Shown here: piece by piece, positions 2,029 to 40,168 of the stretch
Numbering within the stretch: position 1 is the stretch's first letter
Layout: each line of letters begins with the position of its first letter
NCBI GenBank assembly: GCA_034420775.1
Contig: DAOUKZ010000177.1
Location: 1 to 46,659, forward strand
DNA length: 46,659 bases
Source: Dehalococcoidia bacterium
GTDB lineage: Bacteria > Chloroflexota > Dehalococcoidia > SHYB01
Direction of reading: 5' to 3'
Translations under genes and position numbers: made by a program
The notes under the pieces: model-generated
What the model was told of the DNA's origin: nothing
Databases searched by the model: none
What the model saw: the letters and a program-made list of their open reading frames with translations, nothing else

Positions 2029-2112
2029 TTGCGGATATTATAGCCTGTATTCTCCGCAAATTGCCAAGTTTCTCCGCACACGGTGCGGAGAATACACGGC
2101 CTATTCTCCGCA
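2017..2112. promoter_or_regulatory. array of TATTCTCCGCA-type half-sites/palindromes in the fic-hicA divergent region
   Basis: Sites present: TCCGCA-GCATT-TGCGGA (2019..2035, spanning the fic start codon); TATTCTCCGCA (2048..2058); the perfect palindrome TTCTCCGCAC-ACG-GTGCGGAGAA (2070..2092); TATTCTCCGCA (2102..2112). A minus-strand TATAAT (2042..2037) lies 8 nt upstream of the fic ATG. Confidence 0.6.
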
Positions 2113-2154
2113 GCTTCGCAATTGGGCCTCATTGGCTTGGGATGGGTGCAAGGC

Positions 2155-2373
2155 GTGATCCTTGTCTCACTGAGGAAGATTCGGCAGGAAGACGCGGTGA
2201 AGGCCTTCGTCCGGCTGGGCGGTGAAGAGCGCAGGGGCAAAGGCAGCCACCGTGTTGTCAACCTAAAGGGGTACAATCTCTCGGTACCGGCGGGAGTTCT
2301 CAAGATTGGGCTGCTGAAGCACCTGATCAGGCTGGCGGATGTGACTGAACGAGAGTTCCTGAACAAGGTCTAG
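2155..2373 (+). CDS. hicA: HicA-family toxin (mRNA interferase)
   Basis: The segment ...LRKIRQEDAVKAFVRLGGEERRGKGSHRVVNLKGYNLSVPAGVLKIGLLKHLIRLADVTEREFLNKV matches the HicA/YcfA pattern (KGSH core, roughly 70 aa). The ORF is open from GTG 2083; the in-frame GTG at 2155 gives the canonical length. The start is uncertain. Confidence 0.75.
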   Translation: MILVSLRKIRQEDAVKAFVRLGGEERRGKGSHRVVNLKGYNLSVPAGVLKIGLLKHLIRLADVTEREFLNKV

Positions 2374-2394
2374 CAGGGCTGTGAGGAAGCGGCT

Positions 2395-2604
2395 ATGAAG
2401 ACGATCGAAATGACCGGCGCCTTGTCGAAGTTCACGGTCCTCGTTCATGAGGGAGAAGAAGGCGAGACCGGCTACTGGGGCGAAGTCGTCGAACTGCCCG
2501 GCTGTGTCTCACAGGGCGAAACGATCGCGGAGCTCAAGGTGAACATGGGTGAGGCGATCGAGGCGGTGCTGCAACACTCCGTCACTGGCGCCGTCGAGTC
2601 TTAA
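2395..2604 (+). CDS. hicB: HicB-family antitoxin (short, UPF0150-type, no obvious DNA-binding domain)
   Basis: The 69-aa product contains YWGEVVELPGCVSQGETIAELKVNMGEAIEAVL, typical of the HicB N-terminal domain. It lies immediately downstream of hicA, and GAGGAAG sits upstream of the ATG. Confidence 0.8.
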   Translation: MKTIEMTGALSKFTVLVHEGEEGETGYWGEVVELPGCVSQGETIAELKVNMGEAIEAVLQHSVTGAVES

Positions 2605-2648
2605 CGGTTCGAGCTGCCCTTCACCAGCGGCTGAATCTTCGCAAGACA

Positions 2649-2672
2649 TCTCCGCTTTGCATGCGGAGAATA
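2649..2672. promoter_or_regulatory. palindrome with the same half-site downstream of hicB
   Basis: TCTCCGC-TTTGCAT-GCGGAGA is followed by ATA, so the right arm reads TATTCTCCGC on the minus strand. It lies 45 nt after the hicB stop and about 45 nt upstream of the TATAAT at 2713. Confidence 0.5.
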
Positions 2673-2762: not shown

Positions 2763-5216
2763 ATGCCGTCTTCCCTGCCGCTGGAGAGCGTCAACGTCCT
2801 CGACTTGAGCCGCGACGTGGCGGGGGCGTATTGCACGAAGCTGCTGGCCGATTTGGGTGCGACGGTGCTGATGGCGGAGCCACCGGGCGGGCATCCGGCG
2901 CGCTCTGAGGGGCCCTTCCCCGGCGGCGTTCCTCACGCGGAGAAGAGCGGACTGTTCATCTACCTTGCGTCGAACAAGCGGAGCGTGGCCGTGGACGTGG
3001 AGACGGCGGCGGGGCGCGACCGCGCCGCCGAGCTCGCCGCGGACGCCGACCTCGTCGTCGAGAGCATGGCGCCGGGCAAGGTCGACGAGCTCGGCCTGGG
3101 CTACGACCGGCTTAGCGCGGGTCACGACGCGTTGGTGATGACGTCGGTGACGCCGTATGGCCAATACGGGCCCTACCGCGACTGGCAATCGGAGGAGATC
3201 GTCGGGTGGGCGCTCAGCGGCTATCTTTATTTTGGCGGCGACCCGGAGCGGGAGCCGCTGATGGTGCATAACCGGCAGGCCGACCTGCACGGAGGGTCTC
3301 ACGGCGCGCTCGGCTCACTGGCGGCGCTGTGGTGGGCGCGAAGGACGGGCCAGGGGCAGTACGTCGACGTGTCGAGCTTCGAGGCGATGCTCACCGCGCA
3401 CATCTGGACGACGACGATGTGGACGCAGCTGGGCGCGGTGATGGAACGCACCGGCTCCGACGTGATGAAGTGCCGCGACGGGTGGATTCACTTCCTGTCG
3501 ATGGCCGCCAGCCCCGAGCTGTTCGTCATGATCGACAAGCCCGAAATGATGGACGATCCCCGATTCCAAGACCGCGCGGGGTGGATGGCCGCCCAGCCGG
3601 AGATCCAGGCCCTGATCGCCGAGTGGTGCCTGGGCCAGAACAAGGAAGACGTGTGGCGTCTGGGCCAAGACCTCCGCATCCCCTGCGCCCCGGTCTACGA
3701 CGCCGCCGACCTTGCCGCGTCGGAGCACCTCAAGGAGCGCGGCTTCTGGTGGGAGATCGACCACCCCGAGGCGGGGAAGGTCGTCGTGCCGGGCGCGCCG
3801 TACCTCGTCGACGGCGAGACGTTGAAGCCGCGCGGGCCCGCGCCGCGAGTCGGCGAGCACGCCGAAGGCTGGCCGGCGGACCGCCGCGGCCGTTCAGCTC
3901 CGTCCAAGATCACGGCGTTCCGCACGCCCATCGAGCCCGACCCCAAGCCGGAGATGCCGCTGCCGCTGCAGGGCGTGCGCATCATCGAGGTGACGAACAA
4001 CTGGGCGGGGCCGGTGGCGGGCCGCAACCTTGGGGACATGGGCGCGGAGATCATCAAGGTGGAGTCGCCGCAGCGCATCGCGGCTCGGCAGGGGCATTAC
4101 ACCGGGAACCAACCGTTCCGCTATCACTGGAACCGTGTCTCCTATAACTGCAAGATGAATCGCAGCAAGTACGGCGTCACGCCGGACCTCTCGATGCCGG
4201 AAGGGCGCGACCTCTTCCTTGAGTTGGTCAAGGACGCCGACATCGTCATCGAGAACAACAGTCCGCGAGTGATGCGAAACCTCAACCTCACCTACGACGT
4301 ACTCCGCGAGATCAACCCGCGCCTGATCATGCTGCAGATCGCGGCGTATGGGCAGACGGGGCCGAACACCGACTTCATCGCCTACGGGGCGAACATCGAG
4401 GCCGCGAGCGGGCTGGCCTCGGTGACCGGCTATGCCGATGACGAGCGGCCCTACCGCACCGGCTATTTCTACGCCGACCCGGTCACCGCGACCCACGCGT
4501 CGACGGCGATCCTGGCCGCGCTCCACCGACGCGAGCAGACCGGCGAGGGGATGTACATCGACCTCTCGCTCCAGGAGAACGGGATTTCCTTCCTCCCGCA
4601 GTCGATGATCGACTACACGATGAACGGGAAGCTGCCCGAACGGCGGGGCAACCGGCACAGCGTCCACGCGCCGCAGGGCGTCTACCGCACCATCGGCGAG
4701 GACATGTGGCTGAGCCTCTGCGTGCGCTCCGACGACGACTGGCGGCGGCTCGCCGACGTGATCGGCGACGACCGGCTGCGCGACGAGCGCTTCGCGAACG
4801 AGGAGTCGCGCCGCGCCCACCACGACGAGATCGACGGCGTGATCTCCGGCTGGGCCCTTGCGTACGACCACAATGAGGCGTCGGCGATCCTGCAGGAGGC
4901 GGGCATTCCCGCGGCGCCGGTGCTCATGAACTGGGAAATGGTGAGCAACCTGCACGCCTATGCCCGCGACTTCTACGTGATCGTGCCGCAGCGCTCGATG
5001 GGAGCGTGGCCCTATCCGGGCATCACCTGGCATTTCTCGAAGACGCCCACGGAGATTCGTCTGTCAGCGCCCGACTTCGGCGAGCACAACCGCCTCGTGT
5101 TCGGCGACTACATGGGCTTGAGCGAAGAGCAGATCGACGACTTCTACGACCGGCGAGTCATGGCCGATCTGCCCCCCGAGGAGTTCCTCCCGCCGCCGCC
5201 TGCGTACCGGCCGTAG
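2763..5216 (+). CDS. tandem-fused family III CoA-transferase (two CaiB/BaiF domains in one 817-aa chain)
   Basis: The N-terminal half begins LESVNVLDLSRDVAGAYCTKLLADLGATVLMAEPPGG. The second half begins LQGVRIIEVTNNWAGPVAGRNLGDMGAEIIKVESPQR. Each half contains the GQxGP segment and an Asp-containing active-site stretch (RQADLHGG, FYADPVTA). Confidence 0.9.
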   Translation: MPSSLPLESVNVLDLSRDVAGAYCTKLLADLGATVLMAEPPGGHPARSEGPFPGGVPHAEKSGLFIYLASNKRSVAVDVETAAGRDRAAELAADADLVVESMAPGKVDELGLGYDRLSAGHDALVMTSVTPYGQYGPYRDWQSEEIVGWALSGYLYFGGDPEREPLMVHNRQADLHGGSHGALGSLAALWWARRTGQGQYVDVSSFEAMLTAHIWTTTMWTQLGAVMERTGSDVMKCRDGWIHFLSMAASPELFVMIDKPEMMDDPRFQDRAGWMAAQPEIQALIAEWCLGQNKEDVWRLGQDLRIPCAPVYDAADLAASEHLKERGFWWEIDHPEAGKVVVPGAPYLVDGETLKPRGPAPRVGEHAEGWPADRRGRSAPSKITAFRTPIEPDPKPEMPLPLQGVRIIEVTNNWAGPVAGRNLGDMGAEIIKVESPQRIAARQGHYTGNQPFRYHWNRVSYNCKMNRSKYGVTPDLSMPEGRDLFLELVKDADIVIENNSPRVMRNLNLTYDVLREINPRLIMLQIAAYGQTGPNTDFIAYGANIEAASGLASVTGYADDERPYRTGYFYADPVTATHASTAILAALHRREQTGEGMYIDLSLQENGISFLPQSMIDYTMNGKLPERRGNRHSVHAPQGVYRTIGEDMWLSLCVRSDDDWRRLADVIGDDRLRDERFANEESRRAHHDEIDGVISGWALAYDHNEASAILQEAGIPAAPVLMNWEMVSNLHAYARDFYVIVPQRSMGAWPYPGITWHFSKTPTEIRLSAPDFGEHNRLVFGDYMGLSEEQIDDFYDRRVMADLPPEEFLPPPPAYRP

Positions 5217-9380: not shown

Positions 9381-9640
9381 TCTCCCGTGGGAGACCTTTG
9401 CAAAATTAGGGCCGCGGGCTCCATTGACGTTGGCGCACCCCTCCCCGCTCCCCGCCCTCACCCCAACCCTCTCCCAGCGGGAGAGGGGGCAAGACCCCGC
9501 CCATCTGCCGCTCTCTTCTCGCCAGCGGGTTACGCAAAGGATCCGTCGGGAGAAGAGGCAAGACCTCCCCGCTCCGGCGCGCCCTGCGGGCGCGTGCCCT
9601 CCCTCAGTCCCTCCCAAGAGGGAGGGAGGTTTAAGGGCGC
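9381..9640. repeat. cluster of G/C-rich composite hairpin repeats (family copy 1)
   Basis: Hairpins present: TCTCCC-GT-GGGAGA (9381..9394); CCCTCTCCC-AGC-GGGAGAGGG (9467..9487); CGCGCCC-TGC-GGGCGCG (9578..9594); TCCCTCCC-AAGA-GGGAGGGA followed by GGTTTAAGG (9608..9635). Segment 9389..9502 is nearly identical to 23568..23682. Confidence 0.85.
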
Positions 9641-22173: not shown

Positions 22174-22305
22174 GGGTCAACCTCCGCGGGAGTTCCCGCC
22201 GACCGCATTGTAGTGGATACGCCGCCGCGGGCAATCCGCCCCCTACGCAAATCCCGCCGATGCGAGTAGGGTTGGAGCCACCGCGTGCGACCGAAGGAGG
22301 CTCCC

Positions 22306-23205
22306 ATGGCCATCGACCCGAAACCGATCCGCAGCCTGCTCTTCGTTCCCGGGAACCGCGAGGACTGGATGCGCGACGCCCCGAAGTACGGCTCCGACGG
22401 GCTGATCTTCGACATGGAGGGCGCCCTGCCGCCCGACCAGATCGCCGAGGGCCGCGAGATCATCCGCCGCGTGCTCGATGAGACCGGCGGGGCCGGCCCG
22501 CAACGGATCGTGCGCGTGTCGGGCGCGGCCTCCGAGAAGAACCGCGCCGACCTCGAGGCCATCGTCTGCGCCGGCCTTGACGGAGTGATGGTCCCCCAGA
22601 CGCGCGGTCCCGACGACATTGCGGCCATCGACGCCGCCCTTACCGAGCTCGAACGCGAGCGGGGGCTGCCCGAGGGCGGCATCGTCATCACGCCGCTGCT
22701 GGAGTCGGCCGGGGCCATCCGCCAGTCCTACGAGATCGCCACGGTTTCGCCGCGCATCGCGTACATGGGGTCGGGCGTCTCGCGCCGGGGCGACATCGTC
22801 CGCTCCATCGGCTACCGCTGGACGGAGCAGGGCCTCGAGTCGCTCTACTTCCGTTCCAAGGTGCTACTCGACGTCCGCGCCGCCGGCGTTCCCTACCCCA
22901 TGAGCGGCCAGTGGAGCCAGATCGGGAACCTCGAAGGTCTGCGCGCCTTCGCCAACCAGACCCGCGACCTTGGCTACGTCGGCATGAGCTGCATCCACCC
23001 CACCCACGTCCCGGTCATCAACGAGGTCTTCACGCCCACCCAGGAAGAGATCGAGAGCTGGCGCAAGACGCTCGAGACGATGGAGGCGGCTTGGGCCGAG
23101 GGGCGCGGCGCCGTCCGCTTCGAGGACGGCATGGTTGACGAGGCCCACATCCACACCGCACGCCAAGGCCTCGACTTCGCCCGCAAACTCGGCGTCATCG
23201 ACTAG
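22306..23205 (+). CDS. HpcH/HpaI aldolase / CitE-like acyl-CoA lyase (paralog)
   Basis: MAIDPKPIRSLLFVPGNREDWMRDAPKYGSDGLIFDMEGAL, with clear paralogy to 18921..19820 along the whole length. ATG 22306 follows GAAGGAGG; the track start is 22285. Confidence 0.85.
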   Translation: MAIDPKPIRSLLFVPGNREDWMRDAPKYGSDGLIFDMEGALPPDQIAEGREIIRRVLDETGGAGPQRIVRVSGAASEKNRADLEAIVCAGLDGVMVPQTRGPDDIAAIDAALTELERERGLPEGGIVITPLLESAGAIRQSYEIATVSPRIAYMGSGVSRRGDIVRSIGYRWTEQGLESLYFRSKVLLDVRAAGVPYPMSGQWSQIGNLEGLRAFANQTRDLGYVGMSCIHPTHVPVINEVFTPTQEEIESWRKTLETMEAAWAEGRGAVRFEDGMVDEAHIHTARQGLDFARKLGVID

Positions 23206-23267
23206 CCGCCACCGCACAACTCGCCCGCTGGCTCCGCCGGCGGTTGCGCCACGGCCACCCTTGGTTG

Positions 23268-23305
23268 GGCCGCTCGCTCGGGCGCGCTCCGAGCGAGACG
23301 GCCCG
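23268..23305 (+). terminator. strong hairpin downstream of the CitE-like gene (possible terminator, no U-tract)
   Basis: GGGCCG-CTCGCTCGG-GCGCGCT-CCGAGCGAG-a-CGGCCC forms a roughly 15-bp stem with one bulge. It lies about 60 nt after the stop at 23205. Confidence 0.4.
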
Positions 23306-23512
23306 GGAGCCGATCCGCGGTTCTTCCAACCAGGCCCCTCACTGTTAGAGGCAGTGTCTCTACCCCCTCTAAGGGCAGGCTAGCGGCCGATGGGGCCGCC
23401 ATCAGGGCTCGGTCGAAAGAACATCCGTTCGCTATGGTTAGATTAGCAGCGCGGGCGGGAGGCTGTCAAAGGGGGCGTGTCACAGGCGGTTGGCGCAGAG
23501 GTGGCGAGGGGC

Positions 23513-24115
23513 TGCCCTCCCTCAGTCCCTCCCGTAACGGGAGGGAGGTTTAAGTTGCTTTCCCTTGGAGAGCTTTGCAAAATGCGGGGCGCGGGCTACG
23601 TTGAGGTTGGCGCACCCCCTCCCCGCGCCCCGCCCTCACCCCAACCCTCTCCCAGCGGGAGAGGGGGAAGACCGCCCCCCGGCCCTCTCTCAGTCTCCCC
23701 CACAAGGGGGGAGAGGTTTAAGGTGCTCCCCCTGCGGGGGAGGTTTACGGTGATACCCCGCCCCGGAGAAGAGGGGGAACGGGCGATTCGTGAATCGCCC
23801 CTACGGGAGCAGGCGTGGCGGGCGGGCTCTGTTGACGTTGGCGCGCCCCTCCCTGCGCCCCGCCCTCACCCCAACCCTCTCCCAGCGGGAGAGGGGGCAA
23901 GACCGCCCGCCGGCCCTCTCAGTCTCCCCCACAAGGGGGGAGAGGTTTAAGGTGCTCCCCCTGCGGGGGAGGTTTACGGTGATACCCCGCCCCGGAGAAG
24001 AGGGGGAACGGGCGAGTCGCGACTCGCACCTACCGGAGTGGGCGACCACAAGAGTCGCCCCTACCGGAATGATCCCCTGCAGGCGTCGCGGGTTACGCAA
24101 AGGGTTCCTTTGGGG
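23513..24115. repeat. largest cluster of the composite hairpin repeat family, containing a 231-bp tandem duplication
   Basis: Unit 23591..23821 is repeated almost identically at 23822..about 24045. Each unit contains CCCTCTCCC-AGC-GGGAGAGGG, TCTCCCCC-ACAA-GGGGGAGA + GGTTTAAGGTGC, CTCCCCC-TGC-GGGGGAG and GGTTTACGGTGATACCCCGCCCCGGAGAAGAGGGGGAACGGGCG. TCCCTCCC-GTAAC-GGGAGGGA + GGTTTAAG lies at 23527..23554. GGGCGAC-CACAAGA-GTCGCCC + CTACCGG lies at 24040..24066. Confidence 0.9.
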
Positions 24116-24137
24116 GTGGGCTCCCGCAAGGGTGCTC

Positions 24138-24980
24138 CTACGGGAGGTCCTGGTTGAAGGTGGGCTTGCGGTGCTCGATGAACGAGGCCCGGCCTTCCGA
24201 GGCGTCGGCGTGGTGGTCGGAGATGGCGGTCTTGGTTGCGATGTCGTCCAGGGCTTGGTGGAAGGTGTACTCGGCGGCGTTGTAGATGGCCCGCTTCATG
24301 AGGCGCATGGCGACCTGCGGTCCTTTCGCCAGCTCCTCCGCTAGGGTGTAGGCCCGGTCCATGAGCTGGTCGCGCGGCGCGACCTCGTGGACGAGCCCCA
24401 GCCGTAGGGCCTCGTCGGCGGGGACGATCCGGTTGCGGAGCATGAAGTCCATGGCCCGCCCCACGCCGAGGTGCTGGACGAGGAGGTAGTGGCCCCCCTC
24501 GTCGGGCTGGTAGCCGAAGCGGAGTGTGGCGCTGCCCAGCATGGCGTCGCTCGCCGCGACGCGGAAGTCGCAGGCGAGGGCGAGGGAGAGCCCGGTCTGG
24601 ATGGCGAAGCCGTTGATGGCGGCCACGCTGATCTTGTCCAATTGCCGCACCACGAGCTGCACCGGTTGCGAGAAGGTCCGCAGCGAGTCGTAGGTGCTCA
24701 GCGGGCTTCGATGGCCGTGCGAGATCCGCGGCAGCCGCCCGCTGTCGTGCTTGCGGGGCTTGTCGCTGATGTCGTCGCCCGCGGAGAAGGCGCGGCCCGT
24801 GCCGGTGAACAGGATTACGCGCACCGCGTCCTCCATCTGGGCCTGTAGCAGCGTCTCCACGAGGTCGCGTTTGAGCGGATGCGTCATTCCGTTCATCCGC
24901 TCGGGCTCGTCGAATGTGATGAGCAGGATGTTCTCTCGCTCGATCTCGGCGGTGAAGCCGCTGAACCGGCCGGTATCCAT
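24138..24980 (-). CDS. enoyl-CoA hydratase/isomerase (crotonase) family protein
   Basis: ILLITFDEPERMNGMT...VILFTGTGRAFSAGDDI...VAAINGFAIQTGLSLALACDFRVA is the classic crotonase-fold pattern. The product is 280 aa. Confidence 0.85.
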   Translation of the reverse strand: MDTGRFSGFTAEIERENILLITFDEPERMNGMTHPLKRDLVETLLQAQMEDAVRVILFTGTGRAFSAGDDISDKPRKHDSGRLPRISHGHRSPLSTYDSLRTFSQPVQLVVRQLDKISVAAINGFAIQTGLSLALACDFRVAASDAMLGSATLRFGYQPDEGGHYLLVQHLGVGRAMDFMLRNRIVPADEALRLGLVHEVAPRDQLMDRAYTLAEELAKGPQVAMRLMKRAIYNAAEYTFHQALDDIATKTAISDHHADASEGRASFIEHRKPTFNQDLP

Positions 24981-39911: not shown

Positions 39912-39969
39912 CACCGGCCTCTCCCCTGCTCCGTAGCTGACCTTTGGGTACGGGCGGAGCGGGGGAGCA

Positions 39970-40110
39970 GCGCCCTGCGGGCGCTCGCGCGCCTGACGGC
40001 GCGCGCTCTCTCTCAAATCTCCCCCAGAGGGGGAGAGGGAAGACCACCCCCAGCCCGGCCCTCTCTCAGTCTCCCCCAGAGGGGGAGAGGCTTAAGGTGC
40101 CTCCCTGCCC
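39970..40110. repeat. G/C-rich composite hairpin repeats (family copy 5)
   Basis: Hairpins present: AGCGCCC-TGC-GGGCGCT; GCGCGCC-TGAC-GGCGCGC; TCTCCCCC-AGA-GGGGGAGA twice (40018..40036 and 40070..40088), the second followed by GGCTTAAGGTGC. Confidence 0.85.
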
Positions 40111-40168
40111 CGGGAGAAGATTGAGATGAGGGGCCCCCTGATCACCACCAAGGGCTGCCCAATCCTGA

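Follow-up and report, generated by a model that had tools for sequence, protein, structure and literature searches.

The current analysis concerns a gap of 932 bp (23206..24137) between two convergent genes in a stretch of 46,659 nucleotides of Dehalococcoidia DNA, which was analysed over its whole length and is referred to here as the window. The gap is probably a non-coding site at which several families of short interspersed DNA repeats have accumulated, rather than a gene, one RNA molecule or a terminator of excessive size. The repeats are of known kinds, namely BoxC-type triplex hairpins, repetitive extragenic palindromes (REPs) tagged with GTAG and a frame resembling the miniature inverted-repeat transposable elements (MITEs), and in this lineage they are exceptionally abundant, share a strand polarity and change fast. 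From left to right the gap comprises a D element, one B triplex hairpin, an M element with a doubled four-stem mosaic and a third REP. The tandem duplication in the mosaic is best read as a local amplification within the repeat cluster.

The window is contig C177 of a metagenome-assembled genome (MAG), G000, which consists of 262 contigs and 2.68 Mb with 67% G+C. Its nearest public loci are found in MAGs of Dehalococcoidia, and the sequencing runs containing window sequence are sponge metagenomes. The modules of the gap are dispersed over the genome. Two rounds of nhmmer on G000 have identified 66 copies of module A (query 23591..23672), 271 of module B (23679..23724), 67 of module C (23776..23808; one subfamily only) and 8 of module D (23336..23492), which bears out the dispersed hairpin-module family with many genomic copies proposed in an earlier note on this DNA. 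According to a rough gene model of G000 (2265 genes, 83% coding), about 90% of the module copies lie outside predicted genes, and many are situated at contig ends.

The open reading frames (ORFs) of the gap have no Pfam matches and their mean codon log-odds range from -0.12 to -0.26, whereas the flanking genes score +0.50 and +0.52. A protein-coding gap is ruled out on these two grounds. The non-coding character of this region between convergent genes, and the low-complexity, PHPNPLPAGEGA-type strings into which its ORFs translate, are as the earlier note had described them. A search of Rfam 15 has revealed nothing in the window at the gathering score and only sub-threshold chance matches in the gap (E 0.1-0.9); a known RNA family is ruled out for the gap, neither gathering nor permissive thresholds having given a hit. 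Perfect hairpins (stem of at least 6, loop of 3-7) number 13 in the gap, compared with 1.9 +/- 1.35 in shuffled sequences.

Triplex motifs of modules A and B

Module A corresponds exactly to the published TM_ECO/BoxC pattern, CCCTCNCCC N3-6 GGGNGAGGG N3 GGGNGAGGG (Holder et al. 2015, PMC4666352). This pattern has 42 matches in G000 and none for the reversed control, and it has been found in 73 of 251 Chloroflexota genomes, in up to 144 copies and with no control hits. Exact matches on the minus strand form the core of module A in both units of the tandem duplication, at 23633..23665 in the first unit (CCCTCTCCC GCT GGGAGAGGG TTG GGGTGAGGG) and at 23863..23895 in the second. Words of the TM_ECO core region 23856..23897 reach a depth of up to about 2000 in DNA runs X1-X4, compared with 5-19 for the flanking genes. 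The copies in G000 would not explain such a depth, and other members of the community therefore probably carry the TM_ECO motif.

Module B has the consensus GCCCTCCCTCAG-TCCCTCCC-ATAA-AGGGAGGGA-GG-TTTAAG and shares the layout of TM_ECO, in which a pyrimidine arm, a loop and a purine arm are accompanied by a 3-nt linker and a mirror 'third-strand' box. The motif B1 (23514..23554, minus strand) has been assigned from a pattern hit, its membership of the nhmmer family of 271, three-way covariation and the triplex scan. Read on the plus strand, it comprises a third box CCCTCCCT (23515..23522), CAG, a pyrimidine arm TCCCTCCC (23526..23533), a loop and a purine arm GGGAGGGA (23539..23546), followed by GG and a TTTAAG tail; on the minus strand the blocks stand in purine-motif (class II) order. 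The motif B2 occurs once in each unit of the duplication, also on the minus strand. Its first copy (23683..23722; pattern, covariation and triplex scan) has a pyrimidine arm TCTCCCCC, a purine arm GGGGGAGA and a third box with one mismatch, and its second copy (23914..23951; unit alignment and triplex scan) has a 2-nt deletion in the third box. The earlier note had described chains of short G/C stems, and this description is incomplete, as two of the four stems are three-block intrastrand-triplex motifs of the BoxC/TM_ECO type.

The structure of module B is constrained in evolution. Stem pairs covary at three positions (14/32, 15/31 and 17/29), and the third box covaries with the stem at two, so that the search for covariation recommended in the earlier note has given a positive result. 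At columns 7/15/31 the triple CCG is found in 125 copies and TTA in 113, and at columns 8/14/32 the corresponding counts are 199 and 38. The upstream pyrimidine box of B mirrors the proximal arm, and on the complementary strand it has exactly the sequence of the third strand in an intrastrand triplex of the purine motif.

A scan of G000 for triplex motifs (stems of at least 8, loops of 1-6) has identified 336 perfect 8-bp pyrimidine-loop-purine hairpins, 320 of which (95%) are accompanied by a mirror third box with at most one mismatch. Perfect third boxes number 219 in mirror geometry against 60 in the direct-repeat control. In the pattern searches the reversed controls gave no hits. Only 18 of the 336 hairpins lie inside predicted genes, though the genome is 83% coding. 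The motifs fall into six sequence families (B1, B2, B3, B4, A and E), in all of which the box differs from the purine arm by 0-1 mismatch. When the third block is set antiparallel to the purine arm and the triads G.G-C, A.A-T and T.A-T are counted, 9 of 9 positions agree in A, 8 of 8 in B1 and 7 of 8 in both B2 and B3. Six of the seven genus genomes have the strict module B pattern, which was not found in any of 23 other genera searched. A search for further variants that could separate triplex from hairpin models yielded only the same four B subfamilies in G003 and G006.

GTAG REPs, composite elements and the tandem duplication

Module C, read on the minus strand, shows GTAG and then a G+C palindrome, which is the signature of GTAG-tagged REPs. 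Three such hairpins, all assigned to the minus strand, are found in the gap. The first (23781..23804; family listing and GTAG stem scan) reads GTAG-GGGCGATTC-ACG-GAATCGCCC on that strand, and the second (24010..24033; unit alignment and hairpin scan) reads GGGCGAGTCGCGACTCGCACCTAC on the plus strand. The third (24040..24064, GGGCGACCACAAGAGTCGCCCCTAC on the plus strand; families D16 and D20, hairpin and GTAG scans) belongs to another subfamily and lies outside the duplication. G000 has 160 GTAG hairpins with a perfect stem of at least 7, and the GTAG REP pattern gives 72-118 hits in each of six genomes of the genus. REPs of the GTAG type are known in Chloroflexi, often in tandemly reiterated clusters (Di Nocera et al. 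2013, PMC3733652).

A gene resembling the REP-associated tyrosine transposases (RAYTs) has been identified on contig C130 (locus L001, 269..892). Its ORF has an HUH motif (PNHIHGII) and a tyrosine motif (WQRNYYEH), matches NF047646 with an E-value of 7e-15 and 55 bits against a cut-off of 80, and is flanked by GTAG REPs. An in-frame GTAG REP doublet of 93 nt lies between the two motifs, and the gene may have been inactivated by its own repeat. The RAYT search suggested in the earlier note was therefore productive as regards the gene, and unproductive as regards an explanation of the triplex modules, with no such gene in five of the seven genomes of the genus.

These data bear on the proposal that one RAYT, a Y1 HUH transposase, carries every module along as a REPIN-like passenger, which we consider unlikely. 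The gene on C130, with its two motifs and its REPs on both sides, agrees with the proposal, as do the high GTAG REP counts of the RAYT-bearing Dehalococcoidia genomes G010, G022 and G023; a strand-polarised orientation is moreover the expectation for single-strand transposition. Against this, Y1_Tnp has been found only in G000 and G006, while G002-G005 have comparable numbers of modules A, B and C; the gene of G000 is interrupted by the doublet and scores below the cut-off; and modules A and B have no GTAG tag. Neighbouring REPs are arranged head to tail in 20 cases and inverted in 6, and the three REPs of the gap are all direct, which departs from the inverted doublets that define REPINs. RAYT as a universal driver has been ruled out, as five of the seven genomes searched yielded no Y1 gene although the repeats are present in four of these five.

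A larger, MITE-like frame, which the earlier note had not recognised, encloses the duplicated block. This expanded M frame of 541 bp (23567..24108, plus strand; paired-end scan) ends in GGAGAGCTTTGCAAAAT on the left (23567..23583) and TTACGCAAAGGGTTCC on the right (24093..24108). Seven complete copies of the M element, of 144-158 bp, are found elsewhere in G000. The TM_ECO motif is part of the element, whose inverted ends read GGAGACCTTTGCAAAA / TTACGCAAAGGTCTCC and which is also present on contigs C65, C100, C147 and C231. A copy in the window (9390..9545) is situated inside the loop of an E-type triplex hairpin, and at the orthologous site of G002 the hairpin is intact and empty. Target-site duplications, which the earlier note had advised looking for, have not been found in consistent form at the M element, and no cognate transposase has been identified for it; a GGGAGA repeat is possibly present at the junction.

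Within the M frame, Tandem Repeats Finder (TRF) reports a repeat at 23591..24038 with a period of 229, 1.9 copies and 93% matches. The first unit (23591..23821, 231 bp, plus strand) is comprised of module A, module B2, a hairpin B' and a GTAG REP, and the second (23822..24050, 229 bp, plus strand) is 91.7% identical to it; both were delimited by TRF, BLAST and unit alignment. The hairpin B' (CTCCCCC TGC GGGGGAG, then GTTTAC) was found by hairpin scan at 23726..23742 and 23955..23971. Each unit thus holds the chain of four stems that had been noted before, with 7-9 bp and loops of 3-5 nt. A 231-bp duplication was rightly recognised in the earlier note, and its description as almost base-for-base was not: identity of the units by TRF, BLAST and MAFFT is 91.7-93%, with small indels. 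The REP stem of the second unit differs from that of the first by a compensatory T-A to G-C change. As the units are about 92% identical, the duplication is not necessarily recent; the earlier note had taken near-identity of the copies to imply recent duplication or active maintenance. No terminal inverted repeats were seen in the 231-bp unit itself, the inverted ends belonging to the M frame.

The start of the unit does recur in the window as previously claimed, 9390..9516 being 87.5% identical to 23567..23690 over 128 nt; 9414..9501 matches 23822..23911 at 92%. The possibility that the unit is unique to this locus is excluded by the modules, which occur from 66 to about 270 times genome-wide, and by contig C69, at whose end the A-B-B'-C composite again forms a tandem array. 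The units of C69 share 93% identity among themselves and 89-90% with those of the window.

An assembly artefact, in which two genomic copies were joined by short-read assembly through a multi-copy repeat, is an unlikely origin of the duplication. The MAG is fragmented, with many repeats at contig ends. Two stretches specific to the second unit (23826..23844 and 23902..23920) are not found at 99% identity or more in public short-read contigs of the five best-matching DNA runs (X1-X5), and all aligned contigs have another base at 23830. Short-read contigs break throughout the repeats, however, and show presence and not absence. Even in the best run the organism reaches a depth of only about 5, and rare words are lost from unitigs, so that the missing stretches are weak evidence. 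With differences at about 8% of their sites, the units could be kept apart by an assembler. A two-unit array of the same composite on C69 and comparable tandem arrays in chromosome-level assemblies of congeners, including one in the orthologous spacer of G005, also speak for a genuine duplication.

The left part of the gap is occupied by the D element, a genus-specific repeat of 150 nt on the minus strand (23337..23490; extended 23262..23492) with 8 copies in G000. Its extended form includes on the left a 9-bp G+C hairpin 3' of the aldolase gene that borders the gap (23273..23297; hairpin scan), also found with the D copies of C165 and C208. On the minus strand the element has TTGACA (23469..23464), a spacer of 18 nt, TGC-TAATCT (-10 hexamer at 23445..23440) and then three hairpins within about 110 nt. 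In the alignment of the copies the promoter-like signal, a -35 and an extended -10 (TTGACA, TGn-TAnnnT), is conserved and the spacer is variable; four pairs show compensatory changes, affecting two of the three hairpins. Six of the seven genomes of the genus have 1-7 copies and the 23 other genera searched have none. The element has no Rfam match, and z-scores of -0.08 and 0.16 do not support an unusually stable fold. From its sequence, the D element looks like a small minus-strand transcription unit, and it could be a gene for a small RNA or a mobile element with a promoter.

Orientation, turnover and possible agents of spread

All 17 triplex and REP elements of the window have one orientation. 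Among the contigs of G000 with at least three triplex motifs, 40 of 51 are uniform, as against 6.4 expected, and the minority orientation accounts for 16 of 244 motifs. Adjacent modules follow one another head to tail with few exceptions. Orientation in G000 follows GC skew (rho -0.74, p 5e-10) and strand-balanced genic skew (rho -0.58, p 2e-5), and shows no significant correlation with gene-strand bias (rho 0.14). The same has been observed in 40 evenly spaced 20-kb windows of G002, with rho of -0.47 for GC skew (p 0.007) and -0.45 for genic skew (p 0.012), and none for gene-strand bias. It is on the C-skewed strand that the G-rich strand capable of forming the triplex is found. The composition of the elements themselves would bias the skew in the opposite direction.

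The gap is bounded on the left by a gene of the HpcH/HpaI aldolase or citrate-lyase-beta-like type (22285..23205, plus strand; PF03328, E 2e-29), whose orthologues in the sister species G002 and G005 have 89% nucleotide identity. On the right it is bounded by an enoyl-CoA hydratase/isomerase gene (24138..24980, minus strand; PF00378, E 2e-47), with 95% amino-acid identity in related Dehalococcoidia MAGs. The spacer between them changes quickly. In G002 it measures 223 bp and has other modules, and in G005 it measures about 800 bp and comprises the D element at the orthologous site together with another tandem array (about 185 bp), different from that of G000. In the locus L003 of a related MAG (DAOUKH010000036.1) the first hairpin of the spacer is cut by a foreign segment: a B-type hairpin following the hydratase stop (4843..4880) has its 3' arm truncated by a segment with a long reverse-strand ORF. 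This may represent an integration into the hairpin.

Turnover by insertion, deletion and tandem amplification extends beyond this spacer. In a 46-kb alignment of G000 and G002, 8 of 10 breaks fall at intergenic spacers with module clusters, in agreement with the published link between triplex motifs and local genomic instability (PMC4666352). Both empty and filled sites have been observed, and the same composite of about 90 nt is found at non-orthologous sites in the two species. A 238-bp module cluster (39925..40162) and a 607-bp segment (2043..2649) of G000 are absent from collinear G002. Tandem arrays of similar composites, with periods of 85-250 bp, are present in the assemblies of G003, G005 and G006, which consist of one to six contigs.

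The array could alternatively be a device acting at the level of transcripts, as a bidirectional terminator or insulator or as a stabiliser of the 3' ends of the convergent mRNAs, as has been proposed for REPs elsewhere; we regard this as unlikely. Its position between convergent genes is suggestive, and module B is found in convergent spacers in 64 of 194 classifiable copies, such spacers making up 17% of all. One B hairpin is terminator-like by score, and the hydratase genes of G002, G005 and L003 have a B hairpin within 4 nt after the stop codon. The orientation of the repeats nevertheless tracks GC skew independently of neighbouring genes, and copies occur in divergent and tandem spacers too. 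A search for intrinsic terminators, with a G+C stem directly followed by a U-tract, gave one site against 0.7 expected by chance, and most stems have no such run. The spacer between the same two genes varies from 223 to 932 bp in sister species, and PIT/BoxC repeats have no promoter or terminator activity in E. coli (earlier work reviewed in PMC4666352). No RNA run containing the locus has been found. A service to the cell, such as the insulation of convergent transcripts, is possible as a secondary side effect and lacks support.

In the accumulation-site reading, which we prefer, the repeat units would act as DNA, and not as protein or dedicated RNA. Where a single strand is exposed, they could fold into hairpins or purine-motif intrastrand triplexes, and new copies would arise in strand-specific events that depend on single-stranded DNA. 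The agent of the GTAG REPs is likely to be a Y1/RAYT transposase, and that of the triplex motifs may be a nuclease of the DUF559 (Vsr-like) family together with copying by repair. Slippage or unequal recombination between co-oriented modules would let the clusters grow or shrink, and the duplication of 229-231 bp could have originated in this way.

The potential role of DUF559 is suggested by small Vsr-like nuclease genes in G002, G003 and G006. The four loci, L192 (G002:C1:1628284-1628601), L193 and L197 (G006) and L194 (G003), all have triplex motifs directly on both sides; in G000 only 4 of 2265 genes are flanked in this manner. In three of the four the flanking motifs share the orientation of the gene, and the gene of G002 is situated in a 20-kb window with 26 motifs. 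Over the 251 Chloroflexota genomes the presence of DUF559 and of TM_ECO are associated with an odds ratio of 6.3 (Fisher p 1e-9), and the odds ratio is 6.4 for genomes with at least ten TM_ECO motifs, neither value being corrected for phylogeny.

A more specific proposal is put forward tentatively, and we hold it to be rather doubtful as a whole. In this proposal the triplex repeats are polarised with respect to the replication strand, so that in all families and over tens of kilobases the strand capable of a stable purine-type triplex is kept on the C-skewed strand; their loops serve as landing pads for elements such as M; and DUF559, not a transposase, drives copying and local tandem amplification. 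The polarity could originate from the formation of new copies through single-stranded DNA at the fork, or from counter-selection, if the opposite orientation were to stall lagging-strand synthesis.

Several observations weigh against the accumulation-site reading and the mode of spread suggested with it. Triplex formation is predicted from the sequence design and the published work on the E. coli motif, where folding of the isolated strand has been shown by circular dichroism and nuclear magnetic resonance for the E. coli sequence only (PMC4666352). The covariation of the third box in B amounts to only two evolutionary changes, and the stem change at 17/29 is not followed by the box. As a minor possibility, part of the covariation is explained by an alternative hairpin between the distal box and the 3' part of the purine arm, which fits B1, B4 and, with wobble, B2, and which fails on the change that defines B3. 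For the repeats in general no target-site duplication or defined cleavage site has been established. In G006, with 12 informative windows, the correlation of orientation with GC skew is a trend only (rho -0.51, p 0.09) and that with genic skew is not significant (rho -0.33). A clean two-replichore skew was not found in G002, whose chromosome-scale skew is patchy, so that 'replication strand' is deduced from local skew. G000 has no DUF559 hit and no enzyme is common to all repeat-bearing genomes; as G000, G004 and G005 have no small DUF559 gene, the link to this family is suggestive and not established. The search for Y1_Tnp/RAYT genes was negative in five of the seven genus genomes covered, and the RAYT cannot explain the triplex modules since four of these five carry repeats. 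With the stretches specific to the second unit missing from the contigs, the exact junction of the duplication has no independent support. The transcript-level role considered above is also to be counted here.

Comparison with known repeat systems

To our knowledge, the BoxC/PIT/triplex-motif repeats have had no accepted function or mechanism of spreading since they became known in the 1990s. If the proposal of a replication-strand polarity and a DUF559 nuclease were true, these long-unexplained repeats would become a defined and testable mobile system. The genus offers a dense natural experiment, with about 120 triplex motifs per Mb in six families, co-orientation that follows the skew, fast turnover and DUF559 genes located between motifs. 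Should the strand polarity and the link to the nuclease hold, the mechanism of the repeats and the resulting instability would be directly testable. For annotation, 'hypothetical proteins' of the PHPNPLPAGEGA type and long gaps in Chloroflexota MAGs are to be recognised as repeat clusters, which are a likely cause of contig breaks in such MAGs.

The closest relatives are the BoxC/PIT/TM_ECO repeats (PMC4666352). Module A matches their pattern letter for letter, and modules B and E have the same three blocks, with a G-rich third box antiparallel to the purine arm and a 3-nt linker. As in E. coli, the repeats are intergenic and high in copy number, vary in number among relatives and mark hotspots of rearrangement. 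They differ in their host, the motif being widespread in Chloroflexota whereas PMC4666352 reported it from Proteobacteria. At least six families coexist here, in MITE-like frames and head-to-tail mosaics, and they are strongly co-oriented and follow GC skew, in contrast to E. coli, for which no strand bias was reported (PMC4666352).

Module C shares with the GTAG REP/REPIN/RAYT systems (PMC3733652; Bertels and Rainey 2011, PMC3116915) a G+C palindrome of 20-25 nt with a terminal GTAG, hundreds of copies, several subfamilies whose stems show compensatory changes, and REPs on both sides of a RAYT-like gene. Clusters tandemly reiterated together with flanking DNA have been described for such REPs, one of them in a Chloroflexi species (PMC3733652). 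Most of the described families form head-head or tail-tail dimers, whereas head-to-tail pairs prevail here. Unlike those systems, the RAYT is missing from most of the congeners that keep the REPs.

The M element resembles the MITEs in its length of 144-158 bp, its imperfect terminal inverted repeats of about 16 nt, its lack of coding capacity and its one empty orthologous site. It is unlike them in having no clear target-site duplication or identified transposase, and in one insertion into the loop of a triplex hairpin.

The bacterial interspersed mosaic elements (BIMEs) of E. coli are mosaics of a few short structured modules with recurring linkers, situated extragenically at the 3' ends of genes and variable in tandem copy number. 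The gap can be likened to them as a mosaic of structured modules. Successive REPs alternate in orientation in BIMEs, whereas those described here run in one direction, with triplex motifs and REPs mixed in the same cluster.

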